A DNA stretch of 37,944 nt, from sequence record PZ247578.1; one strand, given 5' to 3'. This document shows positions 2,475 through 37,699 of this stretch, piece after piece. Source of the DNA: a phage. Both the position numbers and the translations under genes were made by a program. Numbering within the stretch: position 1 is the stretch's first letter; the number at the start of each line of letters is the position of its first letter. A model generated the notes under the pieces. That model was not told the DNA's origin. It searched no databases and saw only the letters and a list, made by a program, of their open reading frames with translations.

Positions 2475-5156
2475 ATGAGCGTCATCTCTATTGACAAACA
2501 CGACTTCTCTGATGTGTCGAACGCCATTGAGCCGTTTAACCTGCTGGCTGACCACTACGGGCAAGACCTTGCAGTCAAACAGCTTCAGCTTGAGCATGAG
2601 GCATATACAGAAGGCGAGCGACGTTTCATCAAGAACCTTGAGCGCCAGACTGAGCGCGGGGAACTGGCAGACAATCAGGTCGCCAAGCCTTTGATGCAGA
2701 CTCTGGTCCCTAAGATTGCGCAAGCCGTCAAGGAGTGGCATGAAGGTCCAGACGGGAAACTGTCAACCTCTCGTCCTAGCGTAGCGTTCACCATGTTGAG
2801 CACTGATGAGAAGGCCGTCAAGGACCGCTCTATGCGCATCTCCTGTGAGTCCGCTGCGGTTATCATACTGAAGGTCATACTCTCAAAGCTGGTAAAGCCT
2901 GAAGGGATACCGATTACACCGATGGCCTCCGCGATAGGTCGCACACTTGAGGACGAAATCCGCTTCGGTCGCATCCGTGACAAAGAGAAAGAGCACTTCA
3001 AGAAGGCGATAGCTGATAACCTGAATAAGAGGGCCGGGGCGTCATACAAGAAAGCCTACATGCAAGCGGTCGAGGCGTCCATGCTGGAGCAAGGCCAACT
3101 GGAAGATGCGTGGGGGACTTGGAGTCCTACAGAGGCTGTCCACGTTGGCATCAAGATGCTCGAGATTGTCATCCAGTCAACACAACTGGTCGAGCTTAAG
3201 CGGTACGGTGCTGGTAATGCAGCGGCTGACGTAGAGATGGTCCACCTGTCAGACTTCTGGGTCAAGAAGATGGCACAACGAGGATTCAGCCTTGCGGGTA
3301 TCGCTCCAGTCTACCAGCCTTGCGTCGTTCCACCTAAGCCGTGGACTGGTGTCGTAGGTGGTGGGTACTGGGCCAAAGGTCGCAGACCGTTACCATTGAT
3401 TCGCTTAGGGTCTAAGTCTGCGGTAGCACGTTATGAAGACGTATACATGCCTGAAGTCTATGACGCTGTGAATATCATCCAGAATACACCTTGGAAAGTG
3501 AACAAGAAGGTATTGGACGTGGTGAACACGGTCGAGAAGCTGAACAACACGCCTATTGAGGACATCCCTCAGATGGAACCGCTGAAGCCTGAGGACTATG
3601 CTGGTGAAACCGAGGAGGAACTAAAGGCATGGAAGAAGGCTGCTGCTGGTATCTATCGCCGCGAGAAGGCCAGACAGTCACGCAGATTATCACTGAGCTT
3701 TATCGTTAACCAAGCAAACAAGTTCTCTCAGTTCAAGGCCATCTGGTTCCCGTACAACATGGATTGGCGAGGTCGTGTCTACGCTGTCCCGATGTTCAAC
3801 CCTCAGGGTAACGACATGCAGAAGGGGCTCCTGACTCTGGCAGTCGGAAAGCCTATTGGTGCTGACGGTTTCAAATGGCTGAAGGTCCACGGTGCAAACT
3901 GTGCGGGTGTCGATAAAGTCACCTTCGATGAGCGCATCAAGTGGGTGGAAGACAACCACGAAAACATCATGGCTGCTGCTAAGGCACCGATGGATAGTAT
4001 TGAGTGGTGGGGCAAGTTAGACTCTCCGTTCTGCTTCCTAGCTTTCTGCTTCGAGTATGCTGGCGTAATGCACCACGGCTTGTCTTACTCCTGCTCGCTG
4101 CCGATAGCGTTCGATGGGTCCTGCTCTGGGATTCAGCACTTCAGCGCTATGCTTCGCGACCACATCGGTGGACATGCAGTAAACCTGACGCCATCCGGTA
4201 AGGTCCAAGACATCTACCGCATCGTGTCTGACCGCATTGAGGAGGAGCTTAAAGTCCTACTGGTTAACGGTACGGACAACGAGATGGTAACTCACGAGGA
4301 CAAGAAAACTGGTGAGATTACCGAGCGTCTCAAGCTGGGGACACGAGAGCTTGCCCGTCAGTGGCTGACCTACGGTATGTCACGAAAGGTCACTAAGCGT
4401 TCGGTCATGACTCTGGCCTACGGGTCGAAAGAGTACGGCTTCGCAGACCAAGTTTACGAGGACATCGTGATGCCAGCGATTGACTCAGGGTCTGGCGCTA
4501 TGTTCACTGAACCAAGCCAAGCGTCTCGCTTCATGGCAAAGATGATTTGGGAAGCTGTGAGTGTGACAGTAGTTGCTGCGGTTGACGCGATGAAGTGGCT
4601 TCAAGGTGCTGCCAAGCTGCTGGCTGCTGAGGTGAAGGACAAGAAGACTGGAGAAATCCTGAAGCCTTGCCTTCCGGTACACTGGGTCACACCTGATGGG
4701 TTCCCGGTCTGGCAGGAGTACCGCAAGAAGGATACTACTCGTCTGAACCTGATGTTCTTAGGGTCATTCAATCTTCAGCCTACCGTCAACAAAGGTACGA
4801 AGAAAGAGCTGGACAAGCACAAGCAGGAGTCAGGCATTAGCCCGAACTTCGTCCACTCACAAGATGGTAGCCACCTCCGCAAGACTGTAGTCCACACTCA
4901 CCGAAAGTATGGCGTGATGTCATTCGCAGTGATTCACGATAGCTTCGGGACCATCCCGGCTGACGCTGAGTATCTGTTCCGTGGCGTCCGTGAGACGATG
5001 GTAGAGACTTACCGCGATAACGATGTGCTGCTTGACTTCTACGAGCAGTTCGAATACCAGCTTCACGAGAGTCAGCGCGACAAGTTGCCTGAGCTTCCGA
5101 AGAAAGGTAAACTGAATATCGAGGACATCTTGTCTTCAGACTTTGCATTCGCTTAA
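2475..5156 (+). CDS. Single-subunit DNA-directed RNA polymerase (T7 gp1 homolog), 893 aa
   Basis: Catalytic motifs DGSCSGIQHFSAM and HDSFGT; length and position as in T7; ends in FAFA like T7 RNAP. Confidence 0.97.
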   Translation: MSVISIDKHDFSDVSNAIEPFNLLADHYGQDLAVKQLQLEHEAYTEGERRFIKNLERQTERGELADNQVAKPLMQTLVPKIAQAVKEWHEGPDGKLSTSRPSVAFTMLSTDEKAVKDRSMRISCESAAVIILKVILSKLVKPEGIPITPMASAIGRTLEDEIRFGRIRDKEKEHFKKAIADNLNKRAGASYKKAYMQAVEASMLEQGQLEDAWGTWSPTEAVHVGIKMLEIVIQSTQLVELKRYGAGNAAADVEMVHLSDFWVKKMAQRGFSLAGIAPVYQPCVVPPKPWTGVVGGGYWAKGRRPLPLIRLGSKSAVARYEDVYMPEVYDAVNIIQNTPWKVNKKVLDVVNTVEKLNNTPIEDIPQMEPLKPEDYAGETEEELKAWKKAAAGIYRREKARQSRRLSLSFIVNQANKFSQFKAIWFPYNMDWRGRVYAVPMFNPQGNDMQKGLLTLAVGKPIGADGFKWLKVHGANCAGVDKVTFDERIKWVEDNHENIMAAAKAPMDSIEWWGKLDSPFCFLAFCFEYAGVMHHGLSYSCSLPIAFDGSCSGIQHFSAMLRDHIGGHAVNLTPSGKVQDIYRIVSDRIEEELKVLLVNGTDNEMVTHEDKKTGEITERLKLGTRELARQWLTYGMSRKVTKRSVMTLAYGSKEYGFADQVYEDIVMPAIDSGSGAMFTEPSQASRFMAKMIWEAVSVTVVAAVDAMKWLQGAAKLLAAEVKDKKTGEILKPCLPVHWVTPDGFPVWQEYRKKDTTRLNLMFLGSFNLQPTVNKGTKKELDKHKQESGISPNFVHSQDGSHLRKTVVHTHRKYGVMSFAVIHDSFGTIPADAEYLFRGVRETMVETYRDNDVLLDFYEQFEYQLHESQRDKLPELPKKGKLNIEDILSSDFAFA

Positions 5157-5463: not shown

Positions 5464-5486
5464 TAAACTATCACTATAGGATTAGA
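5464..5486 (+). promoter_or_regulatory. Phage RNAP promoter (TAAACTATCACTATAGGATTAG), phi1.1-like
   Basis: Consensus core; immediately followed by an RNase III-like hairpin. Confidence 0.8.
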
Positions 5487-5530
5487 CTCAAGGTCATGAC
5501 TCAAAGTCGTGGCCTTCATGATTAACCCTA
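5483..5530 (+). ncRNA. RNase III-like processing hairpin (R1.1 position)
   Basis: AGACTCAAGGTCATG...GTGGCCTTCATGATTAAC; same family as 12305 and 34590. Confidence 0.55.
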
Positions 5531-6002: not shown

Positions 6003-7064
6003 ATGACAACTATCAAAACCAACCCGCATCGCGCTGTAGATTACTCTGAGTCAGGCGTTAAGAAAGCGCTTGAAGCTGCTGGGTCGCTGGAAGCCGAAGT
6101 GAAGTATGACGGTGTGCGATTGAATATTCCGGTCTTCCCTGATGGGCGAACTGAATGGTTAAGCCGTGAGTCAAAGACGCTGCCGGCCTTAGACCATTTG
6201 TCAACAGTTGGTCAGGACATCGGAGCATGCCGTGCGTCCGACTGGCGATGGTTCCTGAAGCAAGCAGGACATGAAGTCTCTGGTCTGATGATTGACGGAG
6301 AGGTGATGGTCAAGGGTGTAGACTTCAACACATCCTCAGGTCTTATCCGCACCATGTGGTCTGACCGCAAGAACTACAAGTGGAACATTAACCCTAAGGC
6401 CGATATGGAGACCAAGAAGTCTAACAAGGTCCCATTCCAGATTAGCCCTGAGTTCCTACAAGTGGTCGTCTACGGGGTCATCGACCTTAACATCATCAAC
6501 GACCCGAAAGCAGAAGGTCCTATCCATAGCGTAACCCGCCTGAAGGCCGAAGCTATCGTCCCTCTCCTCCAGAAATACTTCCCTGAAATAAACTGGGTTC
6601 TGTCTGAGTCACACACGGTCTATGACCTTGAGTCGCTCAACTCCCTGTACGAACAGAAGCGTCTGGAAGGACATGAGGGTCTGGTAGTCAAGGACCCACT
6701 TGGTAAGTGGAAGCGTGGTAAGAAGTCAGGCATGTGGAAGATGAAGCCTGAGGAGACCATCGACGGGACCGTGTGTGGCCTCGTGTGGGGGACTCCTGGC
6801 AAGGCTAACGAAGGTAAGGTGATTGGCTTTGAGGTGCTGCTTGAGGATGGAATGGTGGTTAATGCTTGTGGTCTGACTGAAGAACAGAAGGATGAGTTTA
6901 CGGAAGCCTGTAACACTGATACATATATTCTCGGTGGAATCAATCCATACGAAGGCTGGCAGTGTGAAGTCCTATTCATGGAGCGCTTCCCGGATGGCTC
7001 ACTACGTCACCCTAGCTTCAAGTGCTGGCGCGGGACGGAAGATAACCCTACCATTAAGAGCTAA
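6003..7064 (+). CDS. ATP-dependent DNA ligase (gp1.3 homolog), 353 aa
   Basis: N-terminus MTTIKTNPHRAV..EAEVKYDGVR carries the KxDG adenylation motif and resembles T7 ligase; start taken at the internal ATG 6003 rather than the ORF-track start 5907. Confidence 0.92.
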   Translation: MTTIKTNPHRAVDYSESGVKKALEAAGSLEAEVKYDGVRLNIPVFPDGRTEWLSRESKTLPALDHLSTVGQDIGACRASDWRWFLKQAGHEVSGLMIDGEVMVKGVDFNTSSGLIRTMWSDRKNYKWNINPKADMETKKSNKVPFQISPEFLQVVVYGVIDLNIINDPKAEGPIHSVTRLKAEAIVPLLQKYFPEINWVLSESHTVYDLESLNSLYEQKRLEGHEGLVVKDPLGKWKRGKKSGMWKMKPEETIDGTVCGLVWGTPGKANEGKVIGFEVLLEDGMVVNACGLTEEQKDEFTEACNTDTYILGGINPYEGWQCEVLFMERFPDGSLRHPSFKCWRGTEDNPTIKS

Positions 7065-7110: not shown

Positions 7111-7148
7111 TGTGCTAGCAAGCTATCGTCTGGGACACCAGCTAGACC

Positions 7149-7172
7149 CTAAGCTATCACTATAGGACAACC
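7149..7172 (+). promoter_or_regulatory. Phage RNAP promoter variant (AAGCTATCACTATAGGACAACC)
   Basis: Core ATCACTATAGG with a -12 variant. Confidence 0.7.
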
Positions 7173-12304: not shown

Positions 12305-12350
12305 TCTAGACTCAAGGTCATTCACATCGAGTGGCCTTTATGATTAGACT
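12305..12350 (+). ncRNA. RNase III-like processing hairpin (R4.7 position)
   Basis: AGACTCAAGGTCATTCACATCGAGTGGCCTTTATGATTAG; same family as 5483 and 34590. Confidence 0.55.
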
Positions 12351-15891: not shown

Positions 15892-15965
15892 TTTACTGGG
15901 TCGGACTTCTGGCCCTTTACTGCATGTACAAGTGGTTCGGGTCGAACAACCGTCCTAAACACTGA
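15873..15965 (+). CDS. Small hydrophobic ORF (30 aa) with a GTG start, gene 6.3 position
   Basis: AAGGAGG then a 7-nt spacer before GTG; overlaps the gp6 3' end; hand-translated. Confidence 0.3.
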   Translation: MDTIHVIYWVGLLALYCMYKWFGSNNRPKH

Positions 15966-16019
15966 GTCTAACCGATAGTCATATCCTATTAATCCAACAG
16001 TAATCCATAGGTGAAACAC

Positions 16020-16042
16020 TAAACTATCACTATAGGGACTTT
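16020..16042 (+). promoter_or_regulatory. Phage RNAP promoter (TAAACTATCACTATAGGGACTT), phi6.5-like
   Basis: Full consensus core. Confidence 0.85.
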
Positions 16043-16101
16043 AGGACCTAAGATATGACTATAAGATAGACTTTAGTCTTAACTTAAAGAGGAGATTCAA
16101 G

Positions 16102-17022: not shown

Positions 17023-17263
17023 ATCAATCAGTAAGGCCTTCAAGAAAGTGGTGAAAAGTACGTTAGGGACCGTTGGTCTTGGCTCTGATGACGCGCCTAA
17101 GGTTGTTGAGGCTAAGACCCCAGCAGCACCAGTGGAAGTACCGAACGACAAAGTGGATGGTGTGGATACTGAAGCAACCGCATCTGATGAGAAGAAAGTG
17201 AAGCGTTCCGGTAAGCGTAGCCTTCAGGTCTCTCGCACCTCTGGTGGCGGTATTTCTATTTAA
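17015..17263 (+). CDS. gp7.3-like tail/ejection protein (82 aa), GTG start
   Basis: MGK..KK N-terminus and C-terminal SGKRSLQVSRTSGGGISI, as recalled for T7 gp7.3 (..SGGGINI); SD TAAGGAG 7 nt upstream of GTG. Confidence 0.8.
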   Translation: MGKSISKAFKKVVKSTLGTVGLGSDDAPKVVEAKTPAAPVEVPNDKVDGVDTEATASDEKKVKRSGKRSLQVSRTSGGGISI

Positions 17264-22126: not shown

Positions 22127-24484
22127 ATGCCACTAATTACTCAATCAATCAAAAATCTTAAAGGTGGCATTAGCCAGCAGCCTGATATACTGAGGTTCTC
22201 AGACCAAGGCGAGGCACAGGTTAACTGCTGGTCATCCGAGAGTGATGGACTCCAGAAGCGCCCACCTACAGTCTTCAAGCGACGTCTTAACATCGACGTT
22301 GGGAGCAACCCTAAGTTCCACCTGATTAACCGTGACGAGCATGAGCAGTATTACATCGTGTTCAATGGGTCCAACATTCAGGTAGTTGACTTGAGTGGTA
22401 ATCAATACTCAGTGTCCGGTGTGGTAGATTACGTAACTTCCTCCAACCCACGAGATGACATCCGTGTCGTTACCGTGGCAGACTATACGTTCGTCGTGAA
22501 CCGTAAGGTTGTAGTCAAAGGAGGAAGCGAGAAGTCACACTCTGGTTACAATCGTAAAGCAAGAGCTTTAATCAACCTGCGTGGTGGACAGTATGGTCGA
22601 ACCCTTAAGGTTGGAATCAACGGTGGCGTTAAGGTCGAGCATAAGCTACCAGCAGGTAATGATGCCGAGAAGGACCCACCTAAGGTGGACGCTCAGGCCA
22701 TTGGTGCAGCTCTGAGAGACCTTCTTGTTGCTGCCTATCCTGCCTTCACGTTTGACCTTGGGTCTGGCTTCCTACTAATCACAGCTCCTTCAGGGACCGA
22801 CATTAACTCAGTGGAGACGGAGGATGGCTACGCTAACCAGCTAATCAGCCCAGTCCTAGACACGGTGCAGACAATCTCTAAGCTGCCTCTTGCGGCTCCC
22901 AATGGGTACATCATTAAGATTCAGGGTGAGACAAACAGTAGCGCCGATGAATACTACGTGATGTATGACTCCAACACTAAGACGTGGAAGGAGACAGTGG
23001 AGCCGGGAGTTGTCACTGGGTTCGATGTCACCACAATGCCACATGCTCTGGTCAGACAGTCTGATGGCTCCTTTGAGTTCAAGACTCTGGATTGGTCCAA
23101 GCGTGGTGCTGGTAACGATGACACAAACCCTATGCCTAGCTTCGTGGATGCTGCGATTAATGATGTGTTCTTCTACAGGAACAGACTTGGGTTCTTGTCG
23201 GGTGAGAACGTAATCATGAGCCGTTCAGCCAGCTACTTTGCGTTCTTCCCTAAGAGTGTGGCGACACTGAGTGATGCTGATCCTATTGATGTAGCTGTAA
23301 GTCACCCTCGAATCTCAATCCTTAAGTATGCCGTTCCGTTTAGCGAGCAGCTACTACTTTGGTCGGATGAGGTTCAGTTCGTGATGACAAGCTCTGGGGT
23401 CCTTACCTCGAAGTCTATCCAGCTTGATGTAGGCTCAGAGTTTGCCTTAGGTGATAATGCCAGACCGTTCGCTGTAGGACGCTCAGTCTTCTTCTCAGCT
23501 CCTCGTGGGTCATTCACCAGCATTAAGCGATACTTCGCTGTAGCTGATGTGTCTGATGTGAAGGATGCTGATGATACAACCGGTCACGTATTGTCCTACA
23601 TCCCTAACGGGGTGTTTGATATTCAAGGTACAGGGACTGAGAACTACATCTGCGTCAACTCTACAGGTGCGTACAACCGTATCTACATCTACAAGTTCTT
23701 GTTTAAGGACGGCGTACAGCTTCAAGCCTCTTGGTCACACTGGGAGTTCCCTAAAGATGATAAGATTCTGGCGTCTGCTTCTATTGGCTCTACCATGTTC
23801 ATCGTTCGTCAGCACCAAGGAGGGGTAGACATTGAGCACCTTAAGTTCATCAAGGAGGCAACTGACTTTCCGTTAGAGCCGTATAGACTCCACGTTGACT
23901 CCAAGGTGTCTATGGTAATACCAATTGGCTCGTACAACGCTGACACCTATAAGACTACGGTTGACATTGGTTCTGCTTATGGTGGAAACGCCCCGTCTCC
24001 CGGTCGGTACTATCTTATTGACAGTCAGGGTGCTTATTTGGACCTTGGGGAATTAAACAGTATATCTACTGTGATTACCCTCAACGGCGATTGGTCAGGA
24101 CGTACAGTGTTCATCGGACGGCCCTATCTGATGTCCTACAAGTTCTCACGGTTCCTGATTAAGATTGAAGATGATAGTGGCACTCAGTCTGAAGACACTG
24201 GTCGTCTACAGCTTCGTCGGGCTTGGGTCAACTACAAGGACACTGGCGCTCTGAGACTAATTGTCAGAAACGGTGAGCGGGAGTTCGTGAATACCTTCAA
24301 CGGGTACACCCTTGGTCAGCAAACCATCGGTACTACAAACATTGGTGACGGGCAGTATCGCTTCGCTATGAATGGTAACGCATTAACCACGAGTCTAACC
24401 TTAGAGTCCGACTATCCTACCCCAGTGTCCATCGTTGGGTGTGGCTGGGAGGCATCATACGCTAAGAAAGCTCGTTCAGTCTAA
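22127..24484 (+). CDS. Tail tubular protein B (gp12 homolog), 785 aa
   Basis: N-terminus ITQSIKNLKGGISQQPDILRFSDQG..QKRPP matches T7 gp12; SD AAGGAGGG. Confidence 0.93.
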   Translation: MPLITQSIKNLKGGISQQPDILRFSDQGEAQVNCWSSESDGLQKRPPTVFKRRLNIDVGSNPKFHLINRDEHEQYYIVFNGSNIQVVDLSGNQYSVSGVVDYVTSSNPRDDIRVVTVADYTFVVNRKVVVKGGSEKSHSGYNRKARALINLRGGQYGRTLKVGINGGVKVEHKLPAGNDAEKDPPKVDAQAIGAALRDLLVAAYPAFTFDLGSGFLLITAPSGTDINSVETEDGYANQLISPVLDTVQTISKLPLAAPNGYIIKIQGETNSSADEYYVMYDSNTKTWKETVEPGVVTGFDVTTMPHALVRQSDGSFEFKTLDWSKRGAGNDDTNPMPSFVDAAINDVFFYRNRLGFLSGENVIMSRSASYFAFFPKSVATLSDADPIDVAVSHPRISILKYAVPFSEQLLLWSDEVQFVMTSSGVLTSKSIQLDVGSEFALGDNARPFAVGRSVFFSAPRGSFTSIKRYFAVADVSDVKDADDTTGHVLSYIPNGVFDIQGTGTENYICVNSTGAYNRIYIYKFLFKDGVQLQASWSHWEFPKDDKILASASIGSTMFIVRQHQGGVDIEHLKFIKEATDFPLEPYRLHVDSKVSMVIPIGSYNADTYKTTVDIGSAYGGNAPSPGRYYLIDSQGAYLDLGELNSISTVITLNGDWSGRTVFIGRPYLMSYKFSRFLIKIEDDSGTQSEDTGRLQLRRAWVNYKDTGALRLIVRNGEREFVNTFNGYTLGQQTIGTTNIGDGQYRFAMNGNALTTSLTLESDYPTPVSIVGCGWEASYAKKARSV

Positions 24485-24510
24485 CTTATTGAAGGGCCTA
24501 TAGATTTACC

Positions 24511-24533
24511 TTAACTATCACTATAGGGACTAT
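24511..24533 (+). promoter_or_regulatory. Phage RNAP promoter (TTAACTATCACTATAGGGACTA), phi13-like, flanked by a perfect 12-bp inverted repeat
   Basis: Consensus core; flanking arms AAGGGCCTATAG (24492..24503) and CTATAGGCCCTT (24530..24541). Confidence 0.85.
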
Positions 24534-24560
24534 AGGCCCTTAAGGTTATAAGGAGACTTT

Positions 24561-25043
24561 ATGTATATTCGCAAGGCTACGGAACCAGATGTCCACTACT
24601 TTCTGTGGCATCTTTCAGCAGATGATGTTAATGAGTGCAAAGCAAACTATGGGTCAACCGTTGGTCTCTCTGAAAGACTGCTTAAGCACCTATCCCCGTC
24701 ATCTGTGGTTTTAACGAACGGTGTAGGCGAAGTGTTTGCCTATGGTGGAAACCAAGGGGATAACGTATGGTTCTTGACTTCTGGTCTTGTCTATAAGCTG
24801 AGACCTAAAGAGAAGCGAGAGTTCATAAAGCGTATCTCTGAGTACAGGGACTTAATGTTAGACCAATACGGGACCATCTGGAACTACGTGTGGTCAGGCA
24901 ATAAGTCTCACATTAAATTCTTGAAGTTGCTTGGGGCTAAGTTCCATGATGATTGGACTATCAGCCCGGTAACTGGTGAGCGTTTTCAATTATTCACTAT
25001 CTCTAAGGGGGACGTATGTGTGAACCAGTATCCATCGGTCTAG
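24561..25043 (+). CDS. gp13-like virion/assembly protein, 160 aa
   Basis: Position and size; SD TAAGGAG. Confidence 0.7.
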   Translation: MYIRKATEPDVHYFLWHLSADDVNECKANYGSTVGLSERLLKHLSPSSVVLTNGVGEVFAYGGNQGDNVWFLTSGLVYKLRPKEKREFIKRISEYRDLMLDQYGTIWNYVWSGNKSHIKFLKLLGAKFHDDWTISPVTGERFQLFTISKGDVCVNQYPSV

Positions 25044-25603
25044 GAGTCATGTCTGTAGCCGGGGCCACTATGTCCGCATCCCAGCAGGCCAAGGCCGAAG
25101 GTGCAGCAATTGACGCTCAGAACAGACAGGCTCAGGAAATGGTTAAGCAGATGAACTACTCTGACGCCAACCTGAAGATGCAGGAGCGAGACCTGAAGGA
25201 GCAGCAGATGGCTGAACTGACAGAGACCACTCTAAACGGTATCCGCAATCAGGGGATGGTCCGAGCTGCAGTGGCTGAGTCAGGTCTGGAAGGTAACTCT
25301 ATGGACAGGATTGAACGTCAGGTCGAAGGAGATACAGTCAAGGAGCGAGCAGGGATTACCGAAAGTTACAACCGCGACTATGCGGCTATCTTCGGGAACC
25401 GTATCGCCAACATTGAGAACACCAAGTCTGCTATCCGTGGTCAAGGTAAGATCATCAAGACCAGTCCGCTGGCCCATGCACTTAATGTTGCAAGCGCCGG
25501 GATGCAGGGGTACGCTGCTGGTAAGTCAATCTCTGGGGCATCAAGCTCTGGTGGTGCTGCACCGATTAGTGCTGCTAAAGGCACACCTACAGGTCATAGC
25601 TAA
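25016..25603 (+). CDS. Internal virion protein B (gp14 homolog), 195 aa
   Basis: MC.. N-terminus, GSIRAAIGES-like SGLEGNSMDRIERQVEG and ENYRRDY-like ESYNRDYAAIF match recalled T7 gp14. Confidence 0.85.
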   Translation: MCEPVSIGLGVMSVAGATMSASQQAKAEGAAIDAQNRQAQEMVKQMNYSDANLKMQERDLKEQQMAELTETTLNGIRNQGMVRAAVAESGLEGNSMDRIERQVEGDTVKERAGITESYNRDYAAIFGNRIANIENTKSAIRGQGKIIKTSPLAHALNVASAGMQGYAAGKSISGASSSGGAAPISAAKGTPTGHS

Positions 25604-34589: not shown

Positions 34590-34640
34590 TGTTAGACTCA
34601 AGGTCATTACTATATGTAGTGGCCTTTATGGTTAACACTA
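34590..34640 (+). ncRNA. RNase III-like processing hairpin (R18.5 position)
   Basis: TTAGACTCAAGGTCATTACTATATGTAGTGGCCTTTATGGTTAAC; same family as 5483 and 12305. Confidence 0.55.
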
Positions 34641-35139: not shown

Positions 35140-36899
35140 GTAAAGACTTAGTGGCGCGTCAGGCGCTAATGACTACCCGTATGAAGGCAGACTTCGTGTT
35201 CTTCCTGTTCGTCCTGTGGAAAGCTCTGTCACTACCAGTCCCGACTCGCTGTCAGATTGACATGGCGAAGAAACTATCGGCTGGGGACAACAGGCGTTTC
35301 ATCCTACAGGCGTTCCGTGGTATCGGGAAGTCATTCATTACGTGCGCATTCGTGGTATGGAAACTGTGGAACAACCCAGACTTGAAGTTCATGATTGTGT
35401 CGGCCTCAAAGGAGCGAGCCGATGCTAACTCCATATTCATCAAGCGAATCATCGACCTCATGCCTCAGCTTCAGGAACTCAAACCTAAGCAGGGACAGCG
35501 AGATGCGGTTATTAGCTTCGACGTTGGGCCAGCCAAGCCAGATCACTCACCTTCGGTTAAGTCTGTTGGTATCACTGGTCAGTTGACTGGTAGTCGTGCT
35601 GACATCCTGATTGCCGATGACGTGGAGGTTCCGAACAACTCAGCGACTCAGGCTGCACGAGACCGTCTGTCAGAGCTTGTGAAAGAGTTCGACGCTATCC
35701 TGAAGCCGGGAGGTACAATCATCTATCTGGGCACTCCTCAGAACGAGATGACCCTGTACCGTGAGTTGGAAGGTCGTGGGTATACCACTACTATCTGGCC
35801 AGCTCGTTATCCACGCGACAGGAAGGACTGGCAGTCTTACGGCGACCGTCTGGCTCCTATGCTTCAGGCAGAGCTGGAAGAGGACCCTGAGTCATTCTAC
35901 TGGCGTCCGACCGACGAAGTTCGCTTCGATGATACTGACCTGAAGGAACGTGAGCTGTCATACGGTAAGGCTGGCTTCGCCCTACAGTTCATGCTTAACC
36001 CGAACCTGAGTGATGCTGAGAAGTACCCTCTGAAGCTCCGTGACCTTATCGTAGCCGACTTGGACCCAGCGTCCAGCCCAATGGTCTACCAATGGCTGCC
36101 AAACCCTCAGAACAAGCGTGAGGACGTTCCTAACGTTGGACTCATGGGTGACTCATACCACACGTATCAGACTGTAGGTTCTGCATTCAGCTCGTACACC
36201 CAGAAGATTCTGGTCATTGACCCTAGTGGTCGTGGTAAGGATGAAACTGGTTATGCGGTACTGTATCAGCTCAACGGCTACATCTTCGCTATGGAAGTTG
36301 GTGGTATGCGTGGTGGGTATGAAGACTCTACGCTGGAAGCCTTGGCTAAGATCGGTCGTAAGTGGAAGGTCAACGAATACGTCATTGAGGGTAACTTCGG
36401 TGATGGTATGTACCTTGAGTTATTCAAGCCTGTAGCGGCCCGTATCCATCCTGCTGCTGTAACTGAAGTGAAGAGTAAGGGTCAGAAAGAACTCCGCATC
36501 TGTGACGTTCTGGAGCCTATCATGGGGTCTCACCGACTTATCGTTAACGCTTCTGCTATCGTCCAAGATTACCAGACAGCCTCTGATAAGGATGGCGTTC
36601 GTAACCCTATCTACTCTCTCTTCTACCAGATGACACGTATCTCTCGTGAACGTGGGGCCTTGGCACACGATGACCGACTTGATGCGCTGGCTATCGGTGT
36701 ACAGTTCTTCGTTGAGTCTATGGCTAAGGATGCCAACAAAGGCGAACGTGAAGTCACTGAGGAGTGGCTGGAGGAACAGATGGAGAACCCACGGAAAGGC
36801 TTCGAGTCCATCCACACTGAGTTCTGGGACAATGGGGTCCGGGTAACTCACGATACGGACGACGAGCTGGGGCTATGGTCCTACGTTACGTTCCACTAG
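35136..36899 (+). CDS. Terminase large subunit (gp19 homolog), 587 aa, probable TTG start
   Basis: Walker A-like FRGIGKSF; N-terminus as in T7 gp19; TTG preceded by TAAGGAGGTG. Confidence 0.93.
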
Positions 36900-36908
36900 C
36901 TGAATGAA

Positions 36909-36957
36909 TAACTATAGGCGAAAACTGAATTAATACTCAGTTAGTAACCTATAGTTA
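36909..36957. other. 10-bp inverted repeat TAACTATAGG ... CCTATAGTTA built from promoter-core fragments, loop about 30 nt
   Basis: Read directly; lies between the terminase gene and the rightmost promoter. Confidence 0.6.
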
Positions 36958-36994
36958 CTACCAGTCTAACCTACTGTTTTACAAGGAGTTTGGA

Positions 36995-37017
36995 CTTAAC
37001 TATCACTATAGGGAAGA
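36995..37017 (+). promoter_or_regulatory. Phage RNAP promoter (CTTAACTATCACTATAGGGAAGA), phiOR-like
   Basis: Consensus core near the right end. Confidence 0.85.
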
Positions 37018-37196
37018 CCCCCGGTTACTTATAGTATTACTGTAGTGAATATACATATGCAGACTTTATGCAAGACCTTAGGAGGCAGACTCCGAGTTCT
37101 TACCTAAGGCTTGCACCGATGGAAGGAGGGTGATATTAATCATAATCCCTCCAATACAGATAGTCACAGACCATAGATACAGGAGGTATGTAGCAT

Positions 37197-37355
37197 ATGG
37201 CAAAGACCAAAGCTGTACTTAAAGCTCTGGCGACCAATCGAGCTACATACAGGTTTCTTGCTGCTGTTCTACTTGCTTCTGGCGTTACTGCTGGAAGTCA
37301 GTGGGTCGGGTGGGTCGAGACTCTCGTATGTTCTCTGGTGTCTCAGTGTAATTAA
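37197..37355 (+). CDS. Small hypothetical protein (52 aa) with a hydrophobic segment, gene 19.5 position
   Basis: SD AGGAGGT 8 nt upstream; hand-translated MAKTKAVLKALATNRATYRFLAAVLLASGVTAGSQWVGWVETLVCSLVSQCN. Confidence 0.5.
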   Translation: MAKTKAVLKALATNRATYRFLAAVLLASGVTAGSQWVGWVETLVCSLVSQCN

Positions 37356-37699
37356 CGCAATCATGGTAACGATTCATGAGCGGAAGACCTAAGGTCAGTA
37401 CGTGGATAAAGACTCACTCTACTGACCTTAGCTACTGTAGTCAAGGACTTTAGGTAACACCTTAATAGAAGCTCACCTAGGGTCATCCTACTTATTGGTC
37501 TATCCTAGTGTCGCCTGACCTACGGTCCTTGACCTACAGTAGCTGCCACCTACGGTCACTCGATGAGTTTTGGACCAAAAGTTTGAGACCACATCTCACA
37601 GTTCAAGAACCTCAAGTCTCCCCATAGGCCCTCTTTCAGTCCAGACCAAAGGCCCTACCCGTGCCAGTCTATCATAAGGTTAGACAGATGGTCAAGACG

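Follow-up and report, generated by a model that had tools for sequence, protein, structure and literature searches.

Two inverted repeats in the phage sequence PZ247578.1, a stretch of 37,944 nucleotides referred to here in its entirety as the window, would act as hairpins in plus-strand late RNA and not as DNA sites. The first (site 1, 24492-24541) surrounds promoter phi13 between genes 12 and 13 and would represent an R13-type processing signal for ribonuclease III (RNase III); the second (site 2, 36909-36957) would be a separate, conserved hairpin in the 3' untranslated region (UTR) of the terminase gene, gene 19. To this composite reading we assign a probability of roughly 60%. The analysis itself establishes the sequences and coordinates, the predicted folds, their conservation and covariation, and the positional homology to annotated R13 and R6.5, whereas RNase III cleavage, the positions of the cuts and their physiological effect are what we infer for both sites.

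The window constitutes a near-complete Kayfunavirus genome (K1F/EcoDS1-like, T7 group, Studiervirinae). A 1.2-kb query around the palindromes matched 219 phage records, the top ones being Escherichia phages of the genus Kayfunavirus with 95-98% identity, and the map of open reading frames (ORFs) follows the T7 gene order, with RNA polymerase followed by genes 8, 9, 10, 11, 12, 13-16, 17, 18 and 19.

A promoter-enclosing hairpin between genes 12 and 13

Site 1 lies on the plus strand, in the intergenic space that follows the gene 12 stop (24484) and precedes the gene 13 ATG (24561). The initial annotation had described a phi13-like promoter in the loop of a perfect 12-bp palindrome, with promoter-core fragments in the arms of both sites, and the sequence bears this out: AAGGGCCTATAG (24492-24503) is fully complementary to CTATAGGCCCTT (24530-24541) across a 26-nt spacer, the spacer carries TTAACTATCACTATAGGGA at 24511-24529 with zero mismatches, and all four arm copies of CTATAG(G) were counted in the window. 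The identical promoter sequence is annotated as 'promoter phi13' in EcoDS1 (25367-25389). Perfect inverted repeats of at least 12 bp with spacers of 3-60 nt number 2 in the window against 0.06 in 150 mononucleotide shuffles of it, none of which reached 2, and those of at least 10 bp number 4 against 1.39, a count of 4 being reached by 5% of the shuffles.

Read as RNA, the 5' arm AAGGGCCUAUAG (24492..24503), whose core GGCCUAUAG is invariant in Kayfunavirus, faces the 3' arm CUAUAGGCCCUU (24530..24541), which corresponds to +5..+16 of the phi13 transcript and starts with a tandem copy of the core CTATAGG. The promoter (-17..+6, 24509..24531; predicted +1 at G 24526) lies in the 26-nt loop and overlaps the 3' arm by 2 nt. 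Beneath the arms, a lower helix joins UAACU (24482..24486), including the gene 12 stop UAA (24482-24484), to GGUUA (24544..24548), directly upstream of the gene 13 Shine-Dalgarno sequence. The predicted helix comprises about two turns, consisting of the 12-bp stem (9-bp core), an extension of 2-4 bp and the 5-bp lower helix, with a fold of -21.5 kcal/mol (z = -3.4). In 17 distinct Kayfunavirus sequences, the 19 pairs of this structure are formed in 93% of cells, and those of the UAACU/GGUUA lower helix in 98.8%, with one pair there varying from U-A to U.G. An alternative lower stem in the window that would hide the gene 13 Shine-Dalgarno sequence (CUUAU/AUAAG, AGUCU/AGACU) is not claimed; the different lower helix of the relatives leaves that sequence free.

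The position of this hairpin is that of a processing site in well-studied phages. The T3 record AJ318471 carries a stem_loop, 'RNase III recognition site R13', at 25443-25480 that overlaps promoter phi13 (25457-25479) between genes 12 and 13, and an RNase III site R13 accompanied by a promoter is reported between genes 12 and 13 of T7 in bioRxiv 10.1101/106799, citing Dunn & Studier 1983. Site 1 is thus positionally homologous to both. The T7 RefSeq and V01146 records list phi13 and omit R sites, and the K1F and EcoDS1 records have no RNA-processing sites annotated.

Moreover, the arrangement recurs. The comparison drew on 79 gene 13 loci of Studiervirinae; a hairpin enclosing or overlapping the promoter is found again at phi13 across this group, with arm sequences that differ between genera. 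When the 45 nt upstream of the promoter were compared with the -6..+34 region in 12 genus-level representatives, pairing relative to shuffles reached p <= 0.052 in nine, although the arms differ completely across genera and cannot be placed in a single column-by-column alignment. Among the ten promoters of the window, the same test singles out only phi13 (z = -4.7) and a phi6.5-type promoter (z = -4.0); in T3, the same two promoters, phi13 and phi6.5, stand out.

What varies between genera is the partner of the upstream arm. In the T3 R13 hairpin, GUCUCCCU upstream of the promoter pairs with AGGGAGAC (-1..+7); in T7, UUCUCCCUGUGGUGG pairs with promoter positions -9..+7 (15 bp, z = -5.3); and a K11-like contig has a 19-bp helix extending over -12..+7 (z = -6.7). 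A divergent relative, L023/L074 (GTCCCCTAT...ATAGGGGAC), likewise has a 5' arm that is the complement of its own promoter start region. In Kayfunavirus, the core CTATAGG is tandemly repeated directly after +4 (CACTATAGGGA followed by CTATAGGCCC), and the 5' arm of the window forms a duplex of -21.8 kcal/mol with this downstream copy, the 3' arm, against -9.6 with the core of the promoter itself. The upstream arm of T7 yields -23.5 kcal/mol with the promoter core against -18.4 with a downstream degenerate copy; this second copy, AAUACGACUACGGGAGGG, follows phi13 and offers an alternative pairing partner. In the T7 record NC_001604 (L001, 27227-27306), the degenerate promoter copy (AATACGACT-ACGGGAGG) is located ~10 nt downstream of the phi13 start.

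Since the 5' arm pairs with the duplicated CTATAGG at +5..+16, the promoter-core fragments in the site-1 arms are explained: they are a consequence of the R13 design and not a sign of additional promoters. The promoter consensus TTAACTATCACTATAGGGA has nine matches in the window at <=3 mismatches, all on the plus strand, where 0.01 are expected; two have zero mismatches, the phi13 copy being one of them, and there is a tenth promoter at about 7145-7167. This 3-mismatch search returned none of the four arms, which do not match the -17..+2 consensus and have only CTATAG(G) in common with it. The window count of CTATAG is 14, with a breakdown given as 10 in promoters, 4 in palindrome arms and 1 elsewhere, and because CTATAG reads identically on both strands, its four occurrences in the arms amount to two independent events rather than four. 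The sole copy outside promoters and arms (128-133, left-end region) is flanked by near-matches to RNase III-site flanks, TAGACACAAGG and TAGACTTAAGG (117-141).

Taken by itself, the identification of site 1 as an unannotated R13-type RNase III signal in its Kayfunavirus form, with cleavage predicted by analogy to T3 and T7, appears quite likely. Phage promoters at 16020, 18841 and 19828 lie upstream, so that site 1 is contained in polycistronic late transcripts. Read-through RNA from upstream promoters would carry both arms and form a long, interrupted helix whose loop holds the promoter sequence, and host RNase III would then cut on or beside the 3' arm. After such a cut, the gene 11-12 message would be protected by a 3' hairpin, the usual role of sites of this kind (PMC1540722), and the gene 13 message would have a 5' end close to that of phi13-initiated RNA. 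Transcripts initiated at phi13 (+1 = 24526) would contain the 3' arm alone and escape processing. In evolutionary terms, the 5' arm may originally have been the complement of the promoter's own start region, with the downstream CTATAGG duplicate becoming its partner in the present lineage.

Several observations weigh against this interpretation. The 9-bp core GGCCUAUAG/CUAUAGGCC does not vary in the 17 distinct Kayfunavirus sequences, even where the specificity of the loop promoter differs (L020, L024, L026), and no compensatory changes were found in the arm core within the genus, so that structural support derives from the comparison across genera. The only variation at site 1 in Kayfunavirus is one A-U to G.U change and the U-A/U.G polymorphism of the lower helix. 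Such invariance exceeds what pairing requires and probably also reflects constraints on the initially transcribed sequence. In addition, the perfect 12-bp form (G-C at the tenth pair) occurs in 6 of the 17 variants, T7 R13 is described as a weak site in bioRxiv 10.1101/106799, and no RNase III cleavage data were found in the literature for any Kayfunavirus. The canonical flank of T7-group sites, TAGACTCAAGGTC...GGCCTTTATGATTA (UAGACUCAAGGUC...GGCCUUUAUGAUUA), is absent from both site 1 and site 2 and present only at 5483, 12307 and 34593; T3 R13 also lacks it, however, and the flank therefore does not define R13-type sites.

A two-tier hairpin behind the terminase gene

Site 2 starts 10 nt after the terminase stop (36899). 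It had initially been noted as a 10-bp inverted repeat similar to site 1; TAACTATAGG (36909-36918) and CCTATAGTTA (36948-36957) are indeed fully complementary, but the element is not similar, being instead a distinct two-tier hairpin with a conserved internal loop. In RNA form, the lower stem pairs UAACUAUAGG (36909..36918) with CCUAUAGUUA (36948..36957), both strands showing covariation. Nested within it, and unmentioned in the initial annotation, is a 6-bp upper stem (AACTGA/TCAGTT in DNA; 36923..36942), formed by AACUGA (36923-36928) and UCAGUU (36937-36942) around the 8-nt apical loop AUUAAUAC (36929-36936). Between the two stems, GAA (36920..36922) stands opposite AGUA (36943..36946), and A36947 lies opposite C36919. 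A phiOR-type promoter (36996..37014) begins 39 nt downstream of the hairpin; it belongs to the context of the element and not to the hairpin itself, and its EcoDS1 equivalent is annotated as phiOR (38500-38522). The lower stem alone does not exceed chance (5% of shuffles). The hairpin as a whole does so, both in its fold (-17.0 kcal/mol, z = -4.4) and in the comparative data.

The comparison comprised 32 sequences (23 distinct) from IMG/VR, metagenomes, K1F and EcoDS1, across which the shape remains constant while the sequence changes. Lower stems of the CUAUAGG/CCUAUAG and CUAUGGG/CCCAUAG types are bridged by the G.U intermediate CUAUGGG/CCUAUAG, and in other lineages the stem is fully replaced by AUACCUACGCA/UGCGUUAGGUAU, GUACCG/CGGUAC or GGUUAGUC/GACUAACC. 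Replacement with GAA/AGUA fixed is seen in L045 (ATACCTACGCA/TGCGTTAGGTAT) and in Berlinvirus (GCGG/CCGC). The upper stem is closed by C-G in most relatives but by A-U in the window, L029 and L034 having A.G as an intermediate, and the third position shows a compensatory change from C-G in Kayfunavirus to G-C in Berlinvirus. As pairing stays in several lineages that have lost CTATAG, the resemblance of the site-2 arms to the promoter core is incidental.

In quantitative terms, a MAFFT-only alignment of the close group has 96.6% of cells paired and 2 pairs changed on both sides, and a covariance-model alignment including the L045 group, which is itself fitted to the model, has 96.3% paired, with both sides changed in 6 of 17 pairs. 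The observed covariation was reached by 0 of 500 shuffles, and slid controls were 11-50% paired. A metagenome scan for terminase relatives added almost no new variants of the hairpin.

The element is narrowly distributed. The covariance model recovers it in Erwinia phage FE44 and relatives (Berlinvirus; E = 0.004-0.011) right after the gene 19 stop, with the lower stem GCGG/CCGC, the upper-stem C-G to G-C change and the same GAA/AGUA. A degenerate 27-nt pattern of the loop-stem-loop core matched 26 of 2.9 million IMG/VR contigs, representing two genera with GAA/AGUA invariant; all 26 are T7-like genomes of 39-41 kb, and the match always lies directly downstream of the large-terminase stop. Kayfunavirus and Berlinvirus are the genera in which it was found, and only in this position. 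Within the window, site 2 is the only hairpin of its type, 0.22 being expected even with minimal 4-bp stems.

The element is unannotated in the K1F, EcoDS1 and FE44 records. Rfam returned no match for the whole window at gathering thresholds and, in a permissive scan of 36850-37050, matches at chance level only; a small UAUGCA...UGCAUA hairpin after gene 19 in T7, T3 and K11-like phages, a candidate homologue of the upper stem, was not detected by the covariance model. Site 2 appears undescribed, a novelty modest in scope. A 'hypothetical protein' coding sequence (CDS) of K1F (NC_007456, L028; 38787-38891) has its ATG inside the site-2 apical loop (GCATGAATAC), where the window has ATT (loop 36929-36936); the ORF is not conserved, and this CDS is probably an annotation artefact.

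As to function, site 2 would most likely define or stabilise the 3' end of late read-through RNA in the gene 19 3' UTR, ahead of phiOR, through single-strand RNase III cleavage, as a barrier to exonucleases, or both. RNase III substrates, as described in PMC1540722, are typically about two helical turns long; internal loops confine the cut to a single strand, so that a protective 3' hairpin remains. Our estimate for site 2 as an RNase III or 3'-end stability hairpin, its cleavage being a prediction, falls slightly short of even. The functions proposed in the initial annotation are thus partly borne out: RNase III sites in read-through transcripts are the favoured option for site 1, in the R13 slot of T3 and T7 with a hairpin recurring in Studiervirinae.

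Several points count against the proposed role of site 2. The T3 record annotates no RNase III site behind gene 19, so that a homologous mapped site is lacking, and the hairpins that T7 and T3 do have in this place are small and of a different kind. In some relatives an extra ORF takes the place of the hairpin, and the lineages L044/L052 and L050 keep a hairpin without GAA/AGUA. From these losses it follows that the element is useful rather than essential, which fits the growth of T7 without RNase III reported in PMC6938266. The invariant loop also suggests specific recognition, which would not be accounted for by RNase III processing or RNA stability in general. In the extra-ORF relatives, L039, L040 and L042 from IMG/VR and L137 and L141 from metagenomes, an ORF of ~0.5 kb with its own Shine-Dalgarno sequence is inserted right after gene 19; the site-2 hairpin is replaced, and other hairpins precede phiOR.

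The strongest competitor builds on this loop. The GAA strand and the AGUA strand meet in the antiparallel register A.A, bulged G, U.A, A.G, and AGUA/GAA is the sequence of the sarcin-ricin motif (PMC1865062); site 2 matches that motif in sequence and register, from which a corresponding three-dimensional (3D) fold may be expected. Instead of being cut by RNase III, site 2 could be a protein- or ribosome-factor-binding RNA module, a sarcin-ricin-type loop mounted on a hairpin. Recognised by a host or phage protein, it might control how stable the terminase message is or how it is translated, or might act on a packaging-linked step near phiOR. Such a module is supported by the constancy of GAA/AGUA between two covarying helices in Kayfunavirus groups i-iii and in Berlinvirus, by the sarcin-ricin register, by the restriction of the 27-nt core to a single genomic position and by the lack of canonical T7-group RNase III flanks. 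Conversely, it has no known binding partner, its 3D motif is predicted from sequence, and the loss of GAA/AGUA or of the entire hairpin in the lineages named above indicates that the motif is not indispensable. No literature was found joining RNase III, sarcin-ricin motifs and phage. That the post-terminase hairpin founds an undescribed RNA family with a sarcin-ricin-type module, located in the gene 19 3' UTR of Kayfunavirus and Berlinvirus and binding a specific host or phage protein, perhaps to govern what becomes of the terminase mRNA or to link late transcription near phiOR with packaging, is best treated as a tentative proposal, and the binding module as such as a doubtful but serious competitor to the processing or stability hairpin.

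Alternatives involving DNA, transcription and sequence decay

The initial annotation had also considered protein-binding sites, and the palindromes might more broadly operate as DNA: as cruciforms or single-stranded hairpins during replication, as binding sites for RNA polymerase (RNAP), terminase or endonuclease I, or as targets sensed by defences such as Lamassu. The arms at both sites are perfect DNA palindromes, and palindromes of T7 RNase III sites are reported in PMC11707656 to trigger Lamassu DdmABC as DNA hairpins. The pattern of variation nevertheless favours RNA. One-sided changes at six site-2 pairs are all G.U on the plus strand and would be A.C mismatches on the other strand or in a cruciform; the covariance model scores 79-88 bits on the plus strand against 14-23 bits on the minus strand, a difference of ~60 bits. 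The structure of site 2 therefore belongs to plus-strand RNA and not to DNA. Furthermore, site 1 occupies the spot of RNA processing sites annotated in T3 and reported in T7. Binding through promoter-core fragments in particular is unlikely: the arms hold 6-7 nt of a 19-23 nt promoter, without its -17..-6 recognition region, and at site 2 it is the pairing that is conserved and not CTATAG. A DNA-level role is consequently improbable for the two sites.

Still less probable is that the hairpins pause or terminate the phage RNAP and thereby insulate phi13 and phiOR from read-through, a variant of the pause sites also suggested initially. Each hairpin does lie immediately upstream of, or around, a phage promoter, and both share with the T7 Tphi-type class I terminator and the class II pause signal the form of a hairpin in late RNA, close to where a block of genes ends. 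Unlike these, neither stem is followed by a U-run, and neither site has the class II signal ATCTGTT, which occurs in the window only at 4972 and 10629; a terminator scan returned 0 sites at 24300-24700 and 36800-37500. Moreover, genes 13-19 need read-through or transcription from phi13 and phi17. The suggestion of pausing or termination thus finds no support at either site.

Finally, the arms can hardly be non-functional relics of promoter duplication or decay with accidental pairing. In favour of such relics, the site-1 3' arm begins with a tandem CTATAGG copy, the site-2 TAACTATAGG equals the promoter minus its internal CACTAT repeat, and in T7, too, phi13 is followed by a degenerate promoter copy. 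Yet the sequence at both sites changes between lineages and the arms still pair, as do the CTATAG-free variants of site 2. The covariation at site 2 contradicts this explanation; for site 1, a lack of pairing around phi13 in related genera would have supported it, but such pairing is seen.

Neighbouring signals and relation to known systems

Beyond the two sites, the window contains further RNase III-type hairpins. A phi6.5-type promoter-in-hairpin, absent from the initial annotation, spans 15965..16072 on the plus strand and encloses the promoter at 16020-16038; its arms are AUAGUCAUAUC (15975-15985) and GAUAUGACUAU (about 16051-16061), its outer helix is AGUCUA/UAGACU, and K1F and EcoDS1 show the same fold. 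It is the analogue of R6.5, which in the T3 record AJ318471 (17135-17206) encloses promoter phi6.5 (17160-17182). Comparison with the folds of the annotated T3 sites also identifies three canonical T7-group hairpins, at the R1.1 (5483-5525), R4.7 (12307-12347) and R18.5 (34593-34635) positions, which carry the T7/T3 site sequence TAGACTCAAGGTC...GGCCTT(T/C)ATG(A/G)TTA and are unannotated in the K1F and EcoDS1 records. Their presence indicates that the phage uses a T7-type processing layout, in which site 1 fills the R13 slot.

Two further sequence features accompany these elements. The octamer AGTCTAAC occurs in 10 copies against 1.6 expected, on the plus strand at 6418, 14874, 15965, 16685, 24392, 24478 and 36963 and on the minus strand at 4016, 34142 and 34591; three plus-strand copies flank hairpins, one at R6.5, one at R13, where it overlaps the gene 12 stop, and one immediately behind site 2. 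Beyond the phiOR-type promoter, on its downstream side, a perfect 12-bp inverted repeat, CTAAGGTCAGTA/TACTGACCTTAG (37389-37431; fold z = -3.2), is kept in relatives with a variable inner hairpin, and the divergent contig L051 shows a compensatory change from CAGTA/TACTG to CTGTA/TACAG.

For site 1, the value of these results lies mainly in annotation and clarity, as K1F-type genomes, which are used in phage therapy and engineering, hold unannotated R13- and R6.5-type hairpins around promoters. If phi13 or phi6.5 is moved as a "part", or such a genome is refactored, one half of an RNA-processing signal would be displaced or disrupted as well. The design by which the 5' arm complements the transcript start region would make processed and primary gene 13 mRNAs nearly identical. 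In addition, PMC11707656 describes RNase III-site palindromes as known triggers of Lamassu/DdmABC, so that host range may depend on how many of them a genome carries and how strong they are. Site 2, in turn, provides a small, well-supported candidate RNA motif, absent from Rfam, whose defined 3D module is predicted from sequence and easily tested.

With respect to known systems, the analogy to canonical R1.1-type signals is partial at site 2. Those signals consist of two stems and an internal loop, receive a single cut and leave a 3' hairpin on the upstream RNA; site 2 resembles them in having ~16 bp in two stems with a 4/5-nt internal loop, about two turns in length, in an intergenic position on the transcribed strand, but lacks TAGACUCAAGGUC...GGCCUUUAUGAUUA and has the loop GAA/AGUA instead. 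With the sarcin-ricin (bulged-G/loop E) motif it shares the exact AGUA opposite GAA, the antiparallel register and helices on both sides; known examples of that motif come from rRNA and a small number of other RNAs, whereas the site-2 candidate sits in a phage mRNA 3' UTR, with a putative fold.

The parallels are closer around the promoters. In T3 R6.5 as in its window equivalent (15965-16072), the promoter lies in the apical part of a long hairpin, and T3 R6.5 also has the canonical lower stem and the ACUC/UAUGA internal loop of T7-group sites, which site 1 does not. Site 1 agrees with R13 of T3 and T7 in its position between the gene 12 stop and the gene 13 start, in its strand, and in having its 5' arm ahead of the promoter and its 3' arm at +1 or beyond. 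The logic is also the same, in that read-through RNA can fold and phi13-initiated RNA cannot. In T3, T7 and K11-like phages, however, the promoter itself serves as the 3' arm, whereas in the window it lies in the loop and the duplicated core at +5..+16 takes that place. Site 1 is, in sum, an ordinary and known design with a small architectural twist: a promoter in the loop and a duplicated core as the 3' arm.

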